Source of the DNA: Octopus vulgaris
Taxonomy: Eukaryota
Assembly: GCA_951406725.2 (NCBI GenBank)
Contig: OX597818.1
Location: forward strand, 136,772,001-136,836,000
Length of the DNA stretch: 64,000 bases
Direction: 5' to 3'
Below the pieces are notes generated by a model that did not search any database, was not told the DNA's origin, and worked only from the letters and a program-made list of their open reading frames with translations. Shown in pieces: positions 6,211-51,179 of this stretch (the stretch's first letter is position 1; every line of letters begins with the position of its first letter). Made by a program: the position numbers and the translations under genes.

Positions 6211-7260
6211 CTTCAAGGGCATGTGAAGACTATTGGCATTGCATCTTTCAGTACAAAGAAGGTAAATATTTTAGCAAGTAAAAAGTCGGAAAAAAAGAAG
6301 GAATTCTGAGAATCATTGGTTTCTCTTTTTGGCTTTAGAATAAAATCTGAATATTTAAACAATCTACAAAAAAAAACAAAAAAAAAAACAAACTAAAAAG
6401 ACTATTAAAATGATTATAGGTAAAAATTCTTGAAATATCTAAATTTGTCTTTTTATGGAAGCTACTTGTTTTGGTTCTTAGTAAGTAGCATCGACTAATT
6501 GGTATCTACAGAAAGATGAATTTCCTTTGGGAAGACAAAGGTTTTTGATGGAAAAGTCTGAGAGTAGAAGAGGAAAATGAGAGAATTCAGTGAAATATAT
6601 AGCATAGGAGATTGAAATATGGTGTTAATTCAATATAACAGCACCAACAGCAGTAAAAGGAAGGCACCAAGATTATTCTATAGTTCTTTAGTATTGACTC
6701 TTTGAATGTGTTTCTTCTTCATCTTTCTGATAAAAGACATCCTCTTGATTACACAAAAACATACATGCACATGTGCACCCATACATATGTATATACAGGC
6801 ACAAGACACATACAGATATACATGTACATATATACATACTGACACAGACATATGTACACACACACACACATAGACTGAAAATAGATCGTTTTCCTTTTTT
6901 TTAAATATCTTTATCAATGATTAAGAATTTGTATTTAGCTCACCATCTTTTACATCTATATACAATAATACATGGGATTGTATGTATGCATGGTGTGTGT
7001 GTGTGTGTGTGTGTGTGTACAGTCATGTACAAAACAAAAATGAAAAAAACAACAAAGCAAAATCCAGAAGTAATGCAGTCATGCACACAGATGTACAGAC
7101 ACACAATATAATTATATACCCAAACAGAATATATATACATTAGCATATACATATATAGAAACACAAAATGTGTATACACATACACACATATATATTCACA
7201 TACACAAAATACATACATAAAAAAAACCCTGATATATATTCACACACAGAATATATGCTT

Positions 7261-12510: not shown

Positions 12511-15500
12511 TCATCATCATCATCATCATCATCATTTAGCGTCCGTTTTCCATGCTAGCATGGGTTGGACGGTTCAACTGGGGTCTGGGGAGCCCGAAGG
12601 CTGCACCAGGCCAGTCAGATCTGGCAGTGTTTCTACAGCTGGATGCCCTTCCTAACGCCAACCACTCCGAGAGTGTAGTGGGTGATTTTATGTGCCACCG
12701 ACACAGGTGCCAGACGAGGCTGGCGAACGGCCACGCTCGGATGGTGTTTTTATGTGCCACCGACACAGGTGCCAGACGAGGCTGGCAGACGGCCACGCTC
12801 GGATGGTGTTTTTATGTGCCACCGACACAGGTGCCAGATGAGGCTGGCGGACGGCCACGATCGGATGGTGTTTGTTACGTCCCCAAAGCACGGAGGCCAG
12901 TCTATGCGGTACTGGCTACGGCCACGTTCGGATGATTTTCTTGTGTGCCACCGGCACTGGTACCACAAAGATACAAATTCCATTGATGTTCATCTATTTT
13001 GATTTGTTTTGATTTGATTTGATTTTCACTTGCCTAAAGCACGGAGGCCAGTCTATGCGGTACTGGCTACGGCCACGTTCGGATGATTTTCTTGTGTGTC
13101 ACCGGCACTGGTACCACAAAGATACAAATTCCATTGATGTTCATCTATTTTGATTTGTTTTGATTTGATTTGATTTTCACTTGCCTCAACAGGTCTTCAC
13201 AAGTGTCACAAGAAGGAAGGTATGCACAGGTGGACTGACTACGTCCCAGGTAGGGGCCACGGGTTATGGCCTGACTAGTCTTGCCGGGTCTTCGGATGGT
13301 GTTTTTATGTGCCACCGACACAGGTGCCAGATGAGGCTGGCGAACGGCCACGATCGGATGGTGTTTGTTGCGTGCCCACAGCACGGAGGCCAGTCGATGC
13401 GGTACTGGCTACGGCCACGTTCGGATGGTTTTCTTGTGTGCCACCGGCACTGGTACCACAAGATACAAATTCCATTGATGTTCATCTATTTTGATTTGAT
13501 TTGATTTGATTTTCACTTGCCTCAACAGGTCTTCACAGGTCTTCACAAGTGTCACAAGAAGGAAGGAAGATATGCACAGGTGGACTGACTACGTCCCAAG
13601 TAGGGGCCATGGGTTATGGCCTGACTAGTCTTGCCGGGTCTTCGGTTGGTGTTTTTATGTGCCACCGACACAGGTGCCAGATGAGGCTGGCGGACGGCCA
13701 CGATCAGATGGTGTTTGTTATGTGCCCACATCACAGAGGCCAGTCGATGCAGTACTGGCTACGGCCACGTTCGGATGGTTTTCTTGTGTGTCACCGGCAC
13801 TGGTACCACAAAGATACAAATTCCATTGATGTTCATCTATTTTGATTTGTTTTGATTTGATTTGATTTTCACTTGCCTCAACAGGTCTTCACAAGTGTCA
13901 CAAGAAGGAAGGTATGCACAGGTGGACTGACTACGTCCCAGGTAGGGGCCACGGGTTATGGCCTGACTAGTCTTGCCGGGTCTTCGGATGGTGTTTTTAT
14001 GTGCCACCGACACAGGTGCCAGATGAGGCTGGCGAACGGCCACGATCGGATGGTGTTTGTTGCGTGCCCACAGCACGGAGGCCAGTCGATGCGGTACTGG
14101 CTACGGCCACGTTCGGATGGTTTTCTTGTGTGCCACCGGCACTGGTACCACAAGATACAAATTCCATTGATGTTCATCTATTTTGATTTGATTTGATTTG
14201 ATTTTCACTTGCCTCAACAGGTCTTCACAGGTCTTCACAAGTGTCACAAGAAGGAAGGAAGATATGCACAGGTGTACTGACTACGTCCCAAGTAGGGGCC
14301 ATGGGTTATGGCCTGACTAGTCTTGCCGGGTCTTCGGTTGGTGTTTTTATGTGCCACCGACACAGGTGCCAGATGAGGCTGGCGGACGGCCACGATCGGA
14401 TGGTGTTTGTTATGTGCCCACATCACAGAGGCCAGTCGATGCAGTACTGGCTACGGCCACGTTCGGATGGTTTTCTTGTGTGCCACCGGTACTGGTACCA
14501 CAAAGATACAAATTCCATTGATGTTCATCTATTTTGATTTGGTTTGATTTGATTTGATTTGATTTTGATTTTCACTTGCCTCAACAGGTCTTCACAAGTG
14601 TCATAAGTAGGAAGGTATGCACAGGTGGACTGACTACGTCGCCGGGTCTTCGGATGGTGTTTTTATGTGCCACCGACACAGGTGCCAGATGAGGCTGGCG
14701 AACGGCCACGATCGGATGGTTTTCTTGTGTGCCACCGGTACTGGAACCACAAAGATACAAATTCCATTGATGTTCATCTATTTTGATTTGGTTTGATTTT
14801 CACTTGCCTCAACAGGTCTTCACAAGTTTGGTTTGATTTTCACTTGCCTCAACAGGTCTTCACAAGTGTCACACGTGTCACACACTTGCCTCAACACGTC
14901 TCCACAAGTGTCACACACTTGCCTCTGCCTCAACAGGTCTTCACAAAGTGTCACACACTTGCCTCTGCCTCAACAGGTCTTCACAAGTGTCACACACTTG
15001 CCTCAACAGGTCTTCACAAGTGTCATAAGAGGGAAGGTATGCACAGGTGGACTGACTACGTCGCCGGGTCTTCGGATGGTGTTTTTATGTGCCACCGACA
15101 CAGGTGCCAGATGAGGCTGGCGAACGGCCACGATCAGATGGTGTTTGTTGTGCCCACAGCACGGAGGCCAGTCGATGTGGTACTGGCTACGGCCACGTTC
15201 GGATGGTTTTCTTGTGTGCCACCGGTACTGGAACCACAAAGATACAAATTCCATTGATGTTCATCTATTTTGATTTGGTTTGATTTGATTTTTGATTTTC
15301 ACTTGCCTCAACAGGTCTTCACAAGGGTCACACACTTGCCTCAACAGGTCTCCACAAGTGTCACACACTTGCCTCTGCCTCAACAGGTCTTCACAAGTGT
15401 CACACACTTGCCTCAACAGGTCTTCACAAGTGTCATAAGAGGGAAGGTATGCACAGGTGGACTGACTACGTTGCCGGGTCTTCGGATGGTGTCTTTATGT

Positions 15501-22046: not shown

Positions 22047-22623
22047 TCATCATCATTCATCATTGTTCGACCGTGGTCGAGACAATGGAATTTACCATGC
22101 TACGCCAGACTTCACGGTCCATCATGGCATTACGGAGGTCCTGTTGCTGGATGCATGTATCCCTGGAGATTACATCAGGGTAGGAGAGTGTGCGCCCTCT
22201 GGTATTGCGAGTAGATGGCTTCCACAGGAGAAGAGTAGAAATTACTTCTTTTTCAGCTCTACAACAATGTCCAGCAAACTGGACTCTCCTACCTTTCACA
22301 AGAGATGACACAGGTGGTAGTTTCCCATATATTTGCATTTTGGTTGGATGGTGCTTCCACGAGAGATTTTGAGCTCTCATAAGGAGGCGAGTGTAGGTTC
22401 CATCCAACCGCCTCTCAAGCTTCTTTGATAACGTCCAGGTTTCTGAGCCATATAGTAGAATTGGTTCGACTGTGGCTTTGAAGATTTCAAGTTTGAAGTC
22501 TCTACTTAGATTTGATGACCAGATCTTATGCATGTCATTACAGGCTGACCAGGCCATACCCTTTCTAGTTAGAAAGTATTTTCCAGATGATGATATGTAT
22601 GACCTAAGATATTTATAATCCTC
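22047..22623 (-). pseudogene. RTE/RTEX-clade LINE 3' fragment
   Basis: ORF 22060-22557: ILLYGSETWTL...RRVQFAGHC...MMDREVWR; upstream YKYLRSYI; (TGA)n tail. Confidence 0.92.
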
Positions 22624-24391
22624 ATAGTTGAAATCAGAAACCCATTATTACTTAATATTTACTACCATAAAAACATCAACAACAAGGGAGTTAGCCTCTT
22701 TTCTTCAACTCTCACCATGTGAATAAATAATACAGCTTATCAATTTTTGATAAATAGATAATTACTGTTATTATTTTATTAGCACAGATATGTTATTTCA
22801 TCAATATGGATACTGAACAACAGTTGTATCACGTTCCTGAGATTTTCCCACCGCATTCCTGACAATTACACCATATTTCATGCATAATAAACTATTTATT
22901 ATTTGCAATCCTTCATATTTTCAGTCAGAGAATGTAAGGCAAAACCTCTCTCTTTCCCTCTATCTGTCTGTCTGTCTATATCTACATAATCATCCATTCT
23001 TAATATGTTCCAACAGATTTGAATGTGAATGTGGTATTTTCTGTTGGGTTTGGTCTTTGGAGAACAATTCTATTTAGACATTATGGTTGACAACATTGTG
23101 TAAAGAGAGGAGTTGTTCTCTGAAGATGAAAACATAACAGCAAATAAAATATTTCCACTCAAATTTACAGGAATGTGTTAAGAATGACTGGACAGACCAT
23201 TATTTTGATTCTCGCTATTTTGCATGCTCACAATAATTTTCTATACACATTATATACACATGTGTATGTATGTGTGTGTGTGTGTGTATGATGTATATTT
23301 CTGCTATCATATAAAGAAGATCTTGCACGGGAGAGGTGTGAACCAACTCAACTGATCTTGCCAAATGAATAAAACCAAAGATAAGGTGGTAAAAGCCAGA
23401 CTGTATGCTATCTGTGTAGCAAATTAAAAACACACACACATACACACACACACACAAGCAAGCTAAACTAATAACGCAGATCTGATGATTGTTGGAAATG
23501 ACAGTAATGGAACCAAACATGTGACAAATTTTCATACATAACTCATACCTGTTTCTGTCTCTCTCTCTCTCTGTTTCTCTCTCCCTCTTTCCACTCCCTT
23601 CATAACAAAATTCAGTTTTCTCTTTTAGTATTAAATATTAAAACAAATTTATTATCCAATATATCCTTATTTGGAATGGAAAACTAACCATTATATATTC
23701 AGAATGTAATATTGTATTTCTCAAAACAAAATCCTATTAATAATATATTCTCTCTCTCTCTCTCTCTCTCTCACACATTTTTTTTTTTTTCCAAAGCAAT
23801 TTTCTAAAAATCAAATAAAAATTGCAATTCAGCAGATAAAATTAAAACTCGATAAACAAGTTGTGTTCGAAAACAAAACAAAAGAACATTCCTGTAGAAC
23901 GTTTCAAAACGCTACCGAAATTTCATAAAACTTTAACTGAATTTTCCAGATGTTTTAAACAAATATTCTGAAAAGTTTATTATTTGAGAATCGAAATGAA
24001 ATCCCAAAGACAAGAATTGAACTGAATGGTCAGGAATGATTAGATTTGGACAAATAAAAAAAAGATAAGTAATGCAGAAAGTAATTTAATTTGTAGACAT
24101 AAAGTATATGGAGACAGACTGACGTTGATGGAAGTGTGCAGCGTTGGGGTTGAGAGGTAGACGGAGGGGGTGGAATATATGTGAAATAGCATGGATAATA
24201 GAATAATCTGTTTAGTGGTAGCGGTAGGAGGATGAGATGGGGAGTGTTAAATTGGGAGAGATAGTGGGAGTGTGTAATAGAGGATGGGTGTGTGTGTATA
24301 CTGGGAGAGGAGGAAGGTGTGTTACATTCAGAGGAAAGTAGATGTATACATTGAAAGACAAGGAAGGTGTGTATACGTTGAGACAGAAGGT

Positions 24392-39061: not shown

Positions 39062-39585
39062 CATCATCATCATCGTTTAACGTCCACTTTCCATGCTAGC
39101 ATGGGTTGGACGGTTCAACTGGGGTCTGGGAAGCCTGAAGGCTGCACCAGGCCAGTCAGATCTGGCAGTGTTTCTACAGCTGGATGCCCTTCCTAACGCC
39201 AACCACTCCGAGAGTGTAGTGGGTGAATTTATGTGCCACCGACACAGGTACCAGACGAGGCTGGCGAACGGCACGCTGGATGGTGTTTTATGTGCCACCG
39301 CACAGGTGCCAGACGAGGCTGGCAGACGGCCACGCTCGGATGGTGTTTTTATGTGCCACCGACACAGGTGCCAGACGAGGCTGGCAGACGGCCACGCTCG
39401 GATGGTGTTTTTTGTGCCACCGACACAGGTGCCAGACGATGGTGGATGGTTTTTATGTGCCACCGACACAGGTGCCAGACGAGGCTGGCGAACGGCCACG
39501 CTCGGATGGTGTTTTTTATGTGCCACCGACACAGGTGCCAGACGAGGCTGGCGAACGGCCACGCTCGGATGGTGTTTTTTTATGT
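39062..39585 (-). mobile_element. Family B tail with 62-bp repeats (same subfamily as the 12.5-kb array)
   Basis: Near identity to 12511-12870. Confidence 0.88.
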
Positions 39586-39589
39586 ATTA

Positions 39590-40000
39590 TCTACATAATA
39601 CATAAAGTGGTCTGTTGTAAACGTGACCTATACTACAATGGGGGCACCATCAGAAAGCTGCATACAGCATTAAAGAACATATGCACACAAACACATCAGT
39701 TTATAAACACTTGCTGAAGTGTCATACCCAGGATTTTACTTCAACTATCAGAGTCTTGGAATGCCATATTAGGAATCTATGAATCAAGGAAGCTATTTGA
39801 ATAAATTTCGACTTTTGTTAACAGACAAGAACTATATAAGGCAGACTAATTACTATAACACCAGTCTGCATATGTCACTATCCTCTCCCATATATCTGAC
39901 GAAAGATAATAGCTCTATACCATCTCTCAATTCTCCATGTGTCCTGATGAAAGTACTACCCCCAAATATCAAAGAAATACGGGGTAAAACATTAAATGTT
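39590..40000 (+). pseudogene. Penelope-like GIY-YIG endonuclease relic and downstream pseudo-LTR region
   Basis: HKVVCCKRDLYYNGGTIRKLHT / IKEHMHTNTSVYKHL...NL*IKEAI*I after one frameshift; CTGACGA (39896) and CTGATGA (39944) motifs downstream. Confidence 0.7.
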
Positions 40001-40003
40001 TCC

Positions 40004-40482
40004 TAGATGAACATCAATGGAATTTGTATCTTGTGGTACCAGTGCCGGTGGCACATAAGAAAACCATCCAAACATGGCCGTAGCCAGTACCGCATCGACT
40101 GGCCTCCGTGCTGTGGGCACGTAACAAACACCATCCGATCGTGGCCGTTCGCCAGCCTCATCTGGCACCTGTGTCGGTGGCACATAAAAAACACCATCCG
40201 AGCGCGGCCGTCTGCCAGCCTCGTCTGGCACCTGTGTCGGTGGCACATAAAAAACACCATCCGAGCGTGGCCGTTCGCCAGCCTCGTCTGGCACTTGTGT
40301 CGGTGGCACATAAAATCACCCACTACACTCTCGGAGTGGTTGGCGTTAGGAAGGGCATCCAGCTGTAGAAACACTGCCAGATCTGACTGGCCTGGTGCAG
40401 CCTTCTGGCTCCCCAGACCCCAGTTGAACCGTCCAACCCATGCTAGCATGGAAAGCGGATGTTAAACGATGATGATGATGAT
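40004..40482 (+). mobile_element. Family B tail, inverted relative to 39062-39585
   Basis: 62-bp repeats, family motif, (GAT)n tail. Confidence 0.88.
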
Positions 40483-41330
40483 TTCAGTATTTCATCTGTT
40501 TTGCATTGTTCTAGCCTTTTAACAACTCATAATCAAATTTAATATCACACAATGCTTCACTCAGTCTTGGTATAATTTTGCTTCTAAGTAGCTTTGTCAT
40601 TGACCTCAAAAACTTGTTTTTCCCCTAAAAGACAACTGCCCAAAACACTGGATTTATCACTTCTCGTGGCAAATTAATTCATTGTAATTTATTTCATCTA
40701 TGAACTTTATATAATAAAAAATAAGATGAAAAAAAAATGCAAGAGAAAGAAAGTCATCATCTGCCATTATGAAAATGATGGCAAGATAAGGTGAAGAATA
40801 CCATTTCAGGTATTTTAGTGTTTGAATCTTCAGTTTAGTGGATTCTCTCTGCTGATTCTGATAACAGTGACAGCAGTAAGGTTAATGGAATTGTGATTAT
40901 CACATAACAATCAACAAAAGAAAGGTACACAACAAAAACAGGATCATTGAGTGAAGTCGCTCGGTAGCAGTGAGATGCCGATAATGGTTACAGATATAAT
41001 ATTAGAAAACAACATAACAGTTGCTATTGTCTGTTTGTCATAAGCAAGAAAGTGGTGTATGAAACAGTGCAGAGAAGCCAAACATGTTCAAATTTAATGT
41101 ATAGTTTGGAAAATTAGACAATATGATGGAGGAATTCTATTGCAATTGGATATTGGTTTCTATCTTTTTCTGATAGAAGCCTCTTCAATTAAATGAAAAC
41201 ATACCTAAGAAAATAGGACTGATATCTGCTTGTCTTTTGCAGTACATACACATGCACATACCTGGGTGGAAATGTTTGTTTTTTTTCTTATTCAGTTAAA
41301 GTAGTTACTACTGGAATTATATAATTTATT

Positions 41331-41746
41331 ATAAGAAATACTAATTACTAACATTCGTGTTAGATTGACAGTATACAACCATTCTATCGCCTCACCACCG
41401 TACATGTCTCTACGAGAGATTTAGAAATTTAGTATTTCTTATTTTGATAATCAGTGAATAGACTTCACTGAATTATAGATATATACAATACGAAGTCGAG
41501 ACAAATATTGCCGGCTGACCGGTGTCTGCTACTCTAGGCCGATGAAGGACAATGATCCTGAAACACGTGTCCCTAGATGCAGCTCCGGCGGCCGGGGGTG
41601 TTTGTCTCCCCTTCGTAAATGTATATAACGACACAGGGAAAAATGTGTCAAAGCCATCAGGAGGCGTTGATGCTTTCTAGGGCTATACAGCGGTGGTGTA
41701 CCCCCCTACTGTCACGTTCGTGTTAGATGGACAGTATACAACCATT
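41331..41746 (+). mobile_element. Candidate retrozyme / Penelope-mobilised hammerhead-containing monomer (363-bp period)
   Basis: 33-bp direct repeats 41351-41383 and 41714-41746 (2 mismatches), internal hammerhead, flanking TTAWATAATTTATT duplication. Confidence 0.75.
41533..41577 (+). ncRNA. Minimal type I hammerhead ribozyme (U4C core variant)
   Basis: TCTAGG-CCGATGA-AGGA(caatga)TCCT-GAA-AC(acgt)GT-C-CCTAGA: stems I, II and III all pair; predicted cleavage after GUC at 41571. Confidence 0.8.
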
Positions 41747-42104
41747 TTAAATAATTTATTGTTCTGTCTTAAAGAATTGGCAGGCATATGAATGACTATG
41801 CTTCACTGAAGAAGTTTAATAAGGCAGAAATATGCCTGGAATTGTAACTCCTGTCTGTAGAATAGATTATTCTTCACTTCACTGATTGTTTACTTCCAAT
41901 TCTAATTTAAGCGAGACATTGATGCATCGATTCGTTTCAAAAGTTTTTGTTTGATTTGCTTTTGAGTTGTCACCCTTGCTTTTGTGTTTGGTTAATTGAG
42001 GGCAGTTATTCTCAACCTTTTTGACTCTGTGGCAAATTAGAGTTTAATAAAATGTAAGACAATACAGAAACTATTATGTCTTTACTTGGTCTTTTTAATT
42101 TTAA

Positions 42105-43984: not shown

Positions 43985-45100
43985 TGGCCAGCTGGAGAGC
44001 AGAAGAGGTGGAGAGCAGGCCAACTGGAGCGCAAGTCAAATGGAGAGCAACCCAAATGGAGCGCAAATCAAATGGAGAGCAACTCAAATCGAGAGCAGGC
44101 CAACTGGAGAGCAAGTCAAATGGAGTGAAGGCCAACTGGAGAGCAAGTCAAATGGAGTGAAGGTCAACTGGAGAGCAAGTCAAATGGAGTGAAGGCCAAC
44201 TGGAGAGAAGGTTGTGGGTTGAAAGCAATACTGGTTGGGAGAGATTTCTAGGAAGAACCAGTTCTAGGTGGTGAGAAGACATGAGAAATGACAGGGTTGG
44301 CCAGCAGAAGAGCAGGCCAGTTGGAGAGCAAGTCAAATGGAGAGCAGGCCAGCTGGAGAGCAAGTCAAATGGAGAGCAGGCCAACTGGATAGCAAGTCAA
44401 ATGGAGTGAAGGCCAACTGGAGAGCAAGCCATCGGGAGAGAAGGCCAGCCGGAGAGCAAGTCAAATGGAGAGTAAGTATAATGGAGAGCAGGCCAGTTGG
44501 GGAGCTAATCAAATGGAAAGCAGGCCAACTGGAGAGCAAGTCAAAATACACACACACATACAACAGGCTTTCAATTTCTGTCTAGCAAGTCCACTCATAA
44601 GGCTTCAGTTGGTCTGAGGCTATATATAGCCAAATGGGGAGCAGGCCAGCTGGAGAGCAAGTCAAAATACACACACATACAACAGGCCAACTGGAGAGCA
44701 AGTCAAATGGAGAGCAAGCCAAATGGAGAACAAGTCAAATGGAGAGCAGGCCAGCTGGAGAGCAGGACAAATGGAGAGCAAGTCTAATGGAGAGCAGGCC
44801 AGATGGAGGGCTGGCCAACTGCAGAGCACACCTACTGGAGGGCTGGCCAGCTGGAGAGCAAGTCAAATGGAGAACAAGCCAACTGGAGAGCAGGTCAAAT
44901 GGAGAGGAGGCCAACTGGAGAGCAGGCTGACTGGAGAGCAGGCCAACTGGAGAGCATGCCAGCTGGAGAGCAGGTCAACTGGAGAGAAAGCCAACTGGAG
45001 AGCAAGCCAGCTGGAGAGAAGGCCAACTGCAGAACAGGCCTACTGTTTATTTCTTCCCAACTGGAGAGCAAGTCAACTGGAGAGCAGGTCAGCTGGAGAG
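43985..45100. repeat. 16/32-bp minisatellite (GGAGAGCAGGCCAACT / GGAGAGCAAGTCAAAT)
   Basis: Dozens of degenerate units; contains duplicated flank and SINE pieces. Confidence 0.95.
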
Positions 45101-50942: not shown

Positions 50943-51179
50943 ATGTTAGAGAATCATATTTTGTTCAAACATCTGGTTTGGTTTGGTTTGTTTTTTAAGG
51001 ATCGATACCCTCTCCAACACCAACCACTTTACAGAGTGCCTTAGGTACATTTTTCAGGACTAGCTCCAAAAGTATTGCCACGGCCCTTTGCATAACTACA
51101 GAAGTCACTCAACCCTGTGCTGTCTCTCCAGCTGACCTGCTCTCCAGTTGGCCTGCTCTCCATTTGACTTGCTCTCCAT
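50943..51179 (-). repeat. Inverted duplicate of 45062-45270
   Basis: Reverse-complement match including minisatellite units; 23-bp direct repeats at both junctions. Confidence 0.92.

Follow-up and report, generated by a model that had tools for sequence, protein, structure and literature searches.

A hammerhead retrozyme family in Octopus vulgaris: two-site Penelope-type priming, a candidate snRNA-type promoter and a LINE at the predicted start site

Introduction

A 64,000-nucleotide stretch of Octopus vulgaris DNA (contig OX597818.1; hereafter the window) contains a 363-bp sequence that begins to repeat itself and can be folded into a rod. What kind of element is this, how would it be transcribed, and by what machinery would it be moved? 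A sequence-only reading of the locus had proposed a retrozyme, copied from a structured circular RNA. Retrozymes are a known class, widespread in animals; what is added here is priming at two sites, a candidate snRNA promoter and a LINE located at the starts of U1 and U2 genes and at the predicted start of the retrozyme. The mode of transcription of animal retrozymes and the enzyme that moves them are stated open questions. The present family makes both testable, and it offers a promoter and a start predicted to the base. A literature search, whose reach stopped short of Repbase/Dfam and subscription journals, returned nothing on start-site-directed LINE insertion into retrozymes, two-site priming or a retrozyme snRNA promoter. 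It found no paper on this family either, the supplements of PMC7229834 and of a 2026 preprint also lying outside its reach.

Results and Discussion

Structure of the insertion

The insertion is bounded by 41331-41750 and carries a 10-bp target-site duplication on both sides. Unit positions (u) are window positions minus 41350. The parts of the insertion are:

41321..41330, no strand: left target-site duplication, 10 bp, same sequence as 41751-41760
41331..41344, minus strand: short inverted arm of 14 bp, carrying the u92 end, the second of the two fixed 3' ends; reverse complement of 41429-41442 without mismatch
41351..41713, plus strand: full 363-bp retrozyme unit, defined by family matches and a closed circle
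41388..41442, plus strand: 55-nt segment separating both fixed 3' ends (u38-92), equivalent of the Penelope 'tail', defined by 3'-end pile-ups at u37 and u92
41480..41627, plus strand: long rod with the hammerhead at its tip (predicted fold)
41714..41750, plus strand: second pass over u1-37, stopping at the first fixed 3' end
41751..41760, no strand: right target-site duplication, 10 bp, matching 41321-41330

The element had been placed at 41351..41746. The repeat that defined it was found, 33 bp at 41351-41383 and 41714-41746 with 2 mismatches and a spacing of 363 bp, and it can be extended to 36 bp at 92% identity; the bounds had to be moved outward to take in the 14-bp inverted piece and the 10-bp duplication. 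Each of the proposed stem and hairpin motifs that was looked up is present. The arms of the long stem are TATATACA at 41480 with TGTATATA at 41620, TACGAAG at 41489 with CTTCGTA at 41611, GAGACAAATA at 41498 with TGTTTGTCTC at 41599, and CCGGCTG at 41511 with CGGCCGG at 41589. Further hairpins are formed by TCAGTGAA (41451) and TTCACTGA (41464), GACACA (41630) and TGTGTC (41644), and CATCA (41655) and TGATG (41668), and the unit is closed by pairing of CACCACCG (41393) with CGGTGGTG (41691). The rod-like fold was likewise upheld against shuffled controls, with z-scores between -5.7 and -8.3: the linear fold gave z -8.3 on the plus and -5.7 on the minus strand (0/100 shuffles as good), and the circular fold -7.2 and -8.0, respectively, against 40 shuffles. 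The longest ATG-initiated ORF has 42 aa, in agreement with the reported absence of any ORF of 60 aa or more.

Terminal redundancy had also been put forward as a feature of the element. This part was not sustained, because 5' ends are scattered round the unit and run lengths vary among 60 other loci. The redundancy of 33-36 bp in the window is a product of chance 5' truncation and marks where copying happened to stop. With 1.1 units and a single hammerhead, the window copy is a terminal product that cannot release a unit circle.

Several other repeats were observed in the window. A repeat family with internal tandem units of 62-67 bp, which we presume to be SINE-related, occupies 12681-15435, 39228-40315 and 1555-1795 and includes one 350-bp x 4.6 array. 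A 16/32-bp tandem array lies at 43986-45100, and a short version of it is present at 51124-51178 on the other strand. A 194-aa open frame at 22060-22644 (minus strand) resembles, by eye, the C-terminal portion of a reverse transcriptase of LINE type.

The family across the genome

The genome searched comprises 2.8 Gb in 227 contigs. Of 2,039 candidate places for the unit, 40 were scored and yielded 118 matches, with 93-98% identity in the best copies; rows L008 (= L004), L017 (= L002) and L019 (= L018) were removed as duplicates. Exact-match searches of the whole genome found the 32-nt hammerhead core at 228 sites and a 22-nt 3' motif at 1,906, both with controls of 0. In 27 distinct best-scoring loci and 60 loci picked by the core pattern, the pieces place onto a closed 363-bp circle. 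Copies are circularly permuted and 0.1-3.4 units long. The longest same-strand run reaches at least one unit in 32 of the 60 other loci, at least two in 4 and at least three in 1; the maximum, 3.37 units at L063, contains no ORF. While 5' ends are spread all round the unit, 3' ends are concentrated at u37 and u92.

The genome-wide search suggested by the sequence-only reading thus returned what a retrozyme predicts, namely dispersed, permuted and partly tandem copies of a non-coding unit bearing a type I hammerhead with covarying helices. These data support the view that the window element is one copy of a many-copy, non-coding non-LTR retrozyme of the known animal class, with predicted self-cutting. 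It is assigned to the non-LTR group because its integration is Penelope-type (see below). The unit is small and non-coding, occurs in monomers and multimers, carries a canonical type I hammerhead, lacks LTRs and is flanked by duplications of >4 bp.

At least three further, more diverged families of the same architecture were noticed (L175, L177, L182, L188, L243-L245; L186, L236-L252; L283, L287, L292, L293; L079:1360-1569). Among them is family 2, which has a unit of 362 bp and a U3-A8 core. A hammerhead-like motif in inverted pairs was also seen at L121:4332-4338 and 6874-6880, in a duplicated stretch that holds two truncated retrozyme copies.

The hammerhead ribozyme

41526..41582, plus strand: type I hammerhead, predicted cut after 41571 (Rfam alignment, ensemble pairing, covariation)

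Helix I (41533-38/41572-77) follows a UAC bulge. It leads to the core CCGAUGA (U4C) at 41539-45, helix II at 41546-59 and then GAA; helix III is short and has a palindromic loop. In a scan of 81 bp, Rfam Hammerhead_1 aligned end to end with 14.3 bits against a cut-off of 34 (E 0.46); at gathering level no match was returned in the window, and 41200-41900 gave chance matches only. In the circular ensemble helices I and II pair with p 0.83-1.0, and helix III, with p 0, is unformed in the monomer. The geometry of 41533-41577 (6 bp in helix I, 4 bp in helix II, a weak helix III) fits the description of canonical metazoan type I hammerheads, in which a weak helix III with a palindromic loop favours cleavage of the dimer.

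The U4C core is found in 98 of the 100 core matches listed; related families in the genome have a standard or a U3-A8 core. It has been noted that U4C lowers activity in vitro, yet supports viroid infectivity (Perreault, 2011). In the accessible part of a recent preprint, one of nine predicted Xenopus retrozyme dimers was cut and eight were not (Li 2026, bioRxiv 10.64898/2026.07.22.740005). In 21 diverged copies both sides had changed in 22 of 39 named pairs, compared with 9.1 in shuffles (0/500 reaching 22) and 2-7 in slid controls; since the copies share kinship, these counts are to be read as support and not as a probability. Indels partly misalign helix III and the last hairpin in the alignment used (A1). 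As judged from the aligned copies, the hammerhead is conserved across families, and helices I and II covary.

A LINE inserted at one position of the unit

41507..41522, plus strand: predicted transcription start and empty LINE target site; locus-matched duplications of 14-17 bp start here in occupied copies, and the site is unoccupied in the window

Some copies of the unit are interrupted at u157-172 by a 1.6-kb element with ORF1 only or by a 5.4-kb relative, a LINE with an intact 1,140-aa ORF2 of APE-RT-zinc finger type. At L211 the LINE encodes an ORF1 of 512 aa with zf-CCHC and an ORF2 of 1,140 aa with Exo_endo_phos, RVT_1 and zf-RVT; the best solved-structure match of ORF2 is human L1 ORF2. 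We take this LINE to be Tx1-like, with which its architecture (a zinc knuckle in ORF1, APE-RT in ORF2) agrees. Homologue and atlas searches yielded no clade name and returned no named Tx1 reference.

The association with retrozymes is frequent. Among the 30 best ORF1-only loci, 20 adjoin a retrozyme directly and 3 do so via a second LINE (23 in all), the remaining 7 being elsewhere. Hammerhead bulge and core follow within 18-40 nt at 51 of 236 exact ORF1-only 3' ends (control 0; 0.04 expected), a number that may include composites copied as a unit and so overstate independent events. Twelve further ends failed the strict pattern: five lie at diverged retrozymes, two partly so and five do not. 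With L235 left out as having no LINE 3' end, 17 autonomous-LINE 3' ends were read, of which 14 are at retrozymes, 2 at position 1 of a full U2 gene and 1 at another LINE.

Pattern searches revealed six LINE junctions at U2 +1, on three contigs, and one at U1 +1 among ~38 full-length U1 matches; they gave none at the starts of U4 or U6. Keno, by comparison, inserts inside U2 and not at +1. U2 gene clusters with the LINE at +1 were noted at G000:C3:20.77-20.84 Mb and C23:43.30-43.32 Mb, with one tandem pair (L212).

Target duplications of the LINE are mostly 14-17 bp, both sides carry one local variant, and loci differ; the duplications that the automatic finder chose for L171, L183 and two rows of L188 were not credible. 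The LINE occupies sites equivalent to 41507 in three retrozyme families with different target sequences, and each of its two main clades is present in more than one retrozyme family. Because the duplications carry local variants that differ between loci, and each main clade occupies more than one family, the junction sequences indicate that the LINE has inserted into units repeatedly; some copies may later have spread as composites. Copying of composites does occur, since L161 and L177 hold 5'-truncated LINE-retrozyme composites within Penelope-type inverted insertions. At L181 a 16-nt 5' piece of the LINE copy matches the duplication of another locus, which suggests re-mobilisation from one retrozyme to another.

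A candidate snRNA-type promoter

41450..41455, plus strand: ATCAGT, putative core of an snRNA proximal-sequence element (PSE), in an inverted repeat, 57 nt upstream of the LINE junction at 41507
41477..41486, plus strand: TATA-like AT run, ~30 nt upstream of the predicted start, variable among copies (from sequence)

In vertebrates the PSE of snRNA genes lies ~60 bp before the start. In the octopus, ATCAGT was found upstream of snRNA genes at about -56 to -61, in 5/5 U1, 4/4 scored U2 and 2/3 U4 genes. U2 regions without a preceding LINE have it at -58 to -61 in 9/9 cases (by eye); the U1 and U4 regions, with positions of -56 to -58, were taken after the motif had been seen in U2. Hexamer and spacing in the retrozyme match those of U1, U2 and U4, the spacing in the retrozyme being counted from the LINE junction and not from a mapped start. 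A promoter of U6 type was considered and rejected, since all three scored U6 upstream regions are without the hexamer. Family 2 has ACAAGT at -56/-57. In 81 loci ATCAGT is the least variable stretch of u65-156 (1.4% variation), and the chance p of the hexamer is about 0.003 for one site. With a profile of 11 snRNA promoters, the PSE site in the window ranked second (6.3) after its own inverted copy (7.0), and it ranked second in family 2 as well. The PSE-like core, 41451-41471, is an inverted repeat on which the profile scores both strands; an antisense start near u65 is possible. Contigs of probable-RNA runs, which are unable to show starts, gave no start-site signal.

We infer that u157 is a Pol II start of snRNA type, that the retrozyme has an internal snRNA-type promoter, and that the LINE targets such start sites. 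The LINE could instead be an ordinary sequence-specific element of Tx1 type, whose endonuclease would read a loose motif (often ATC at the nick, with conserved downstream hammerhead bases); the coincidences at U1/U2 +1 and with the hexamer would then be incidental and the retrozyme promoterless. Many targets do start with ATC, there is a single U1 junction despite ~38 full-length U1 matches, and none was found at U4. It has also been noted that retrozymes seem to lack promoters (2020 review), and that Tx1-clade families prefer other transposons, satellites and U2 (available sections of Kojima 2015, PMC4494074). However, the duplicated targets differ strongly between the main family, family 2 (starting GTAGC/GGAAGC), family 3, U2 and U1. 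Their distance to the hexamer is nevertheless 56-57 nt in both the main family and family 2; in U1 and U2, which have no hammerhead, the targets are exactly at +1. We regard a sequence-specific LINE as a serious but rather unlikely account of these sites. Against the promoter it can be said that it depends on one hexamer within an inverted repeat whose inverted copy scores slightly higher. Against the start site, LINE insertions elsewhere are common (7/30 and 5/12 in the two sets above), none is at U4 or U6, and both off-target sites examined for the hexamer, L171 and L185, lack it at -57.

Circular or linear template

Diagnostic alleles were common to the units of one locus in 866 of 881 tandem comparisons (507 expected) and in 1,097 of 1,124 inverted comparisons (642 expected). 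By this measure, each insertion copies one sequence variant. A circular template would fit, and an uncut transcript of a homogeneous tandem would fit likewise. The cut linear monomer was rejected as template: when 20 loci chosen by the 3' motif were searched for 5' ends clustering at the cleavage site, no 5' end or arm was at the cut site (0/20), while 7/20 read across it. Contigs were examined from three runs that are probably RNA and from one large run. In the probable-RNA runs, depth follows the DNA run, and contigs pass u92 into the flanks, as read-through would; the type of the runs was guessed, and such data cannot show strand, start, level or circularity.

It is conceivable that no circle is formed at all, with a Penelope reverse transcriptase copying uncut linear tandem transcripts or jumping back on its template, and the hammerhead being slow, regulatory or vestigial. 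Nearly all core matches listed have the U4C core, and an RNA circle was not seen in the contigs described above. Nonetheless, the hammerhead helices and core have been kept with compensatory changes, including the U3-A8 core of family 2; the predicted start shows no excess of 5' ends, which linear precursors might have given; and retrozyme circular RNAs have been demonstrated in coral, mussel and axolotl. We consider it more likely than not that circles are formed, and think their absence rather improbable.

Penelope-type integration

Inverted two-arm insertions make up 51 of 87 distinct loci. With ten left out because an outer end was unclassifiable, the outer ends were one u37 and one u92 in 41/41, and pairs of 37/37 or 92/92 did not occur. 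The same rule was followed by 10/10 such inverted loci among 20 that were selected independently through the 3' motif, and by the window copy, although classification by outer ends puts a few loci, the window copy among them, wrongly in the single-orientation class. Both fixed priming sites end in TAT, 55 nt apart, and (AT)4 or longer is present at 96 of 131 such ends. Of 20 loci judged by eye to lie outside microsatellites, 17 have duplications of 6-14 bp. There is no fixed 5' end among copies, and 5' truncation, an inverted arm, a one-sided tail and a bias for microsatellites are all present in the family. Truncation, inversion, one-sided tail and microsatellite bias have been described for Penelope-like elements, which also form partial tandems without circles (Craig 2021, bioRxiv 10.1101/2021.04.23.441226, in the portion available). 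On the evidence of these ends, integration is Penelope-type, primed at two fixed sites, one per target strand, and mostly into (AT)n. The strict two-site rule can serve as a fingerprint of the Penelope mechanism.

Autonomous Penelope elements were sought by their GIY-YIG domain. No partner with shared ends was present among the 30 top matches of 150 scored (6,136 candidates) and 17 longer stretches. L133, an autonomous RT+GIY-YIG element, is built in the same two-ended way: its tail of 28 nt lies in (AT)n, and it has a hammerhead-like motif of U4C type. Two autonomous families were noticed in this search. In the second Penelope family, comprising L133, L134, L137 and L140, the hammerhead-like motif lies in the pseudo-LTR (U4C in 2/4) and the 28-nt tail is one-sided in (AT)n. 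The other, at L127:2626-4971 and many identical loci, is very young and has an intact 781-aa RT+GIY-YIG ORF, overlapped from upstream by a ~479-aa ORF in a different frame, a pseudo-LTR that ends in (AT)n, and a 3' region with repeated CCAAT/TGACGT-like motifs and no convincing match to the hammerhead pattern. Neither family showed blastn similarity to the unit. L122 was examined as an autonomous element with the unit as terminal repeat and rejected; its ORF modules are flanked by duplications of their own and are found at other places too.

The main alternative of the sequence-only reading, a solo pseudo-LTR of an autonomous Penelope family, shares the Penelope-like insertion anatomy, and in Xenopus a resemblance to known repeats, for the most part to Penelope ends, has been noted for 24 of 57 retrozyme families (Li 2026, bioRxiv 10.64898/2026.07.22.740005, in the part accessible), but it is very improbable here: copies map on a closed 363-bp circle, the unit closes on itself for up to 3.4 passes without an ORF, the hammerhead is canonical and not minimal, the only ORFs found within units belong to inserted LINEs, which have separate duplications, the loci examined hold no RT plus GIY-YIG ORF linked to the unit, and unit similarity is absent beside the sampled GIY-YIG ORFs.

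Proposed life cycle

We consider it reasonably probable that the family is a non-autonomous, Penelope-mobilised non-LTR retrozyme with an internal snRNA-type promoter, whose monomer is circularised and at whose start sites a LINE inserts. Family membership, ends, targets, covariation and LINE junctions are read directly from the genome; promoter use, cleavage, circularisation, the identity of the enzyme and site finding by the LINE are proposed as follows. Pol II would start at u157 (41507) under the PSE at -57. A tandem transcript would pass two hammerheads, and cutting of the dimer would free a 363-nt monomer running from u222 round to u221. The freed monomer would already hold the promoter of the next unit, which would make each new tandem copy self-sufficient; an element with an upstream promoter could retain it in this way, because the ribozyme-cut monomer includes the next unit's promoter. 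After circularisation, an enzyme with a Penelope-type RT and GIY-YIG domain would copy the circle, through its ligated cut site and for as many as several rounds, priming at u37 and u92 from both target strands with a variable copying distance. The APE-RT LINE would insert at the start of the retrozyme and at +1 of U1 and U2 and could then ride on Penelope-type mobility. At a retrozyme start it would come under the promoter, ~50 nt upstream of the ribozyme cut.

Several observations count against this scheme. The probable-RNA contigs gave no demonstration of RNA of the family in any form. U4C lowers cleavage in vitro, helix III is unformed in the monomer, and the Rfam score is far below the cut-off. 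The GIY-YIG loci sampled included no autonomous element with shared ends, and the common alleles and the reading across the cut site would also suit uncut linear tandem transcripts.

A wider proposal, which we offer tentatively and think somewhat doubtful as a whole, is that the retrozyme superfamily is a self-promoted circular-RNA parasite and that the LINE finds its targets via the snRNA transcription-initiation complex and not by target sequence, forming a three-tier host-parasite system. If so, the LINE would land at +1 of U1, U2 and retrozymes alike and take over the promoter. In retrozymes it would gain a ribozyme-cut 3' end ~50 nt downstream and hitchhike on Penelope-driven copying. Homing on snRNA-type starts whatever the target sequence would be a protein-guided mode of LINE targeting, which we did not find described. 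It would be of interest for gene insertion at safe sites and for the ways in which mobile elements exploit one another.

Comparison with known systems

Metazoan non-LTR retrozymes, in the available portions of Cervera & de la Pena (2020, PMC7229834) and Li, Clavereau & Pollet (2026, bioRxiv 10.64898/2026.07.22.740005), are non-coding units of 150-450 bp (350-390 bp in mussel) with a type I hammerhead. Like the octopus family, they are less than 50% GC, fold stably, occur as anything from monomers to multimers and have duplications of >4 bp; Penelope machinery has been proposed for them. Octopus, squid and cephalopods go unmentioned in the main text of PMC7229834. As far as the accessible text goes, the octopus family stands apart in its priming at two fixed ends under the one-of-each rule, in its (AT)n targets, and in having a candidate PSE and a LINE that targets the unit. 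Conversely, circles have been demonstrated for known members (PMC7229834, in part), whereas for the octopus family they are proposed.

EN+ Penelope-like elements share with the family 5' truncation, partial tandems, an inverted 5' arm, a tail at one end and microsatellite bias (Craig 2021, bioRxiv 10.1101/2021.04.23.441226; Cervera & de la Pena 2014, PMC4209133; portions available). They differ, within the same portions, in that the octopus family has no ORF, its tail equivalent is 55 nt (30-40 bp in theirs) and lies within a closed unit, and its hammerhead is canonical where theirs is minimal.

Newt satellite 2 (cited in PMC2220036, available in part) is likewise a hammerhead tandem repeat with an internal snRNA-type Pol II promoter. 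In that amphibian satellite the promoter was established by experiment, according to the accessible text; in the octopus it is predicted from sequence, in a dispersed family of invertebrate type whose start would be marked by a LINE.

The Tx1-clade LINEs Tx1L, Keno, Tx1-Mar and SINEU, as far as covered by the available parts of Kojima 2015 (PMC4494074) and PMC4640811, resemble the LINE found here in APE-RT organization, duplications of ~15 bp, tandem pile-up at the target, a non-autonomous partner and a preference for U2 or another mobile element. In those parts their preference is ascribed to the sequence specificity of the endonuclease. In the octopus the targets share position (the known or predicted start) more than sequence, and the LINE spans U1, U2 and retrozymes, with its junction at +1.
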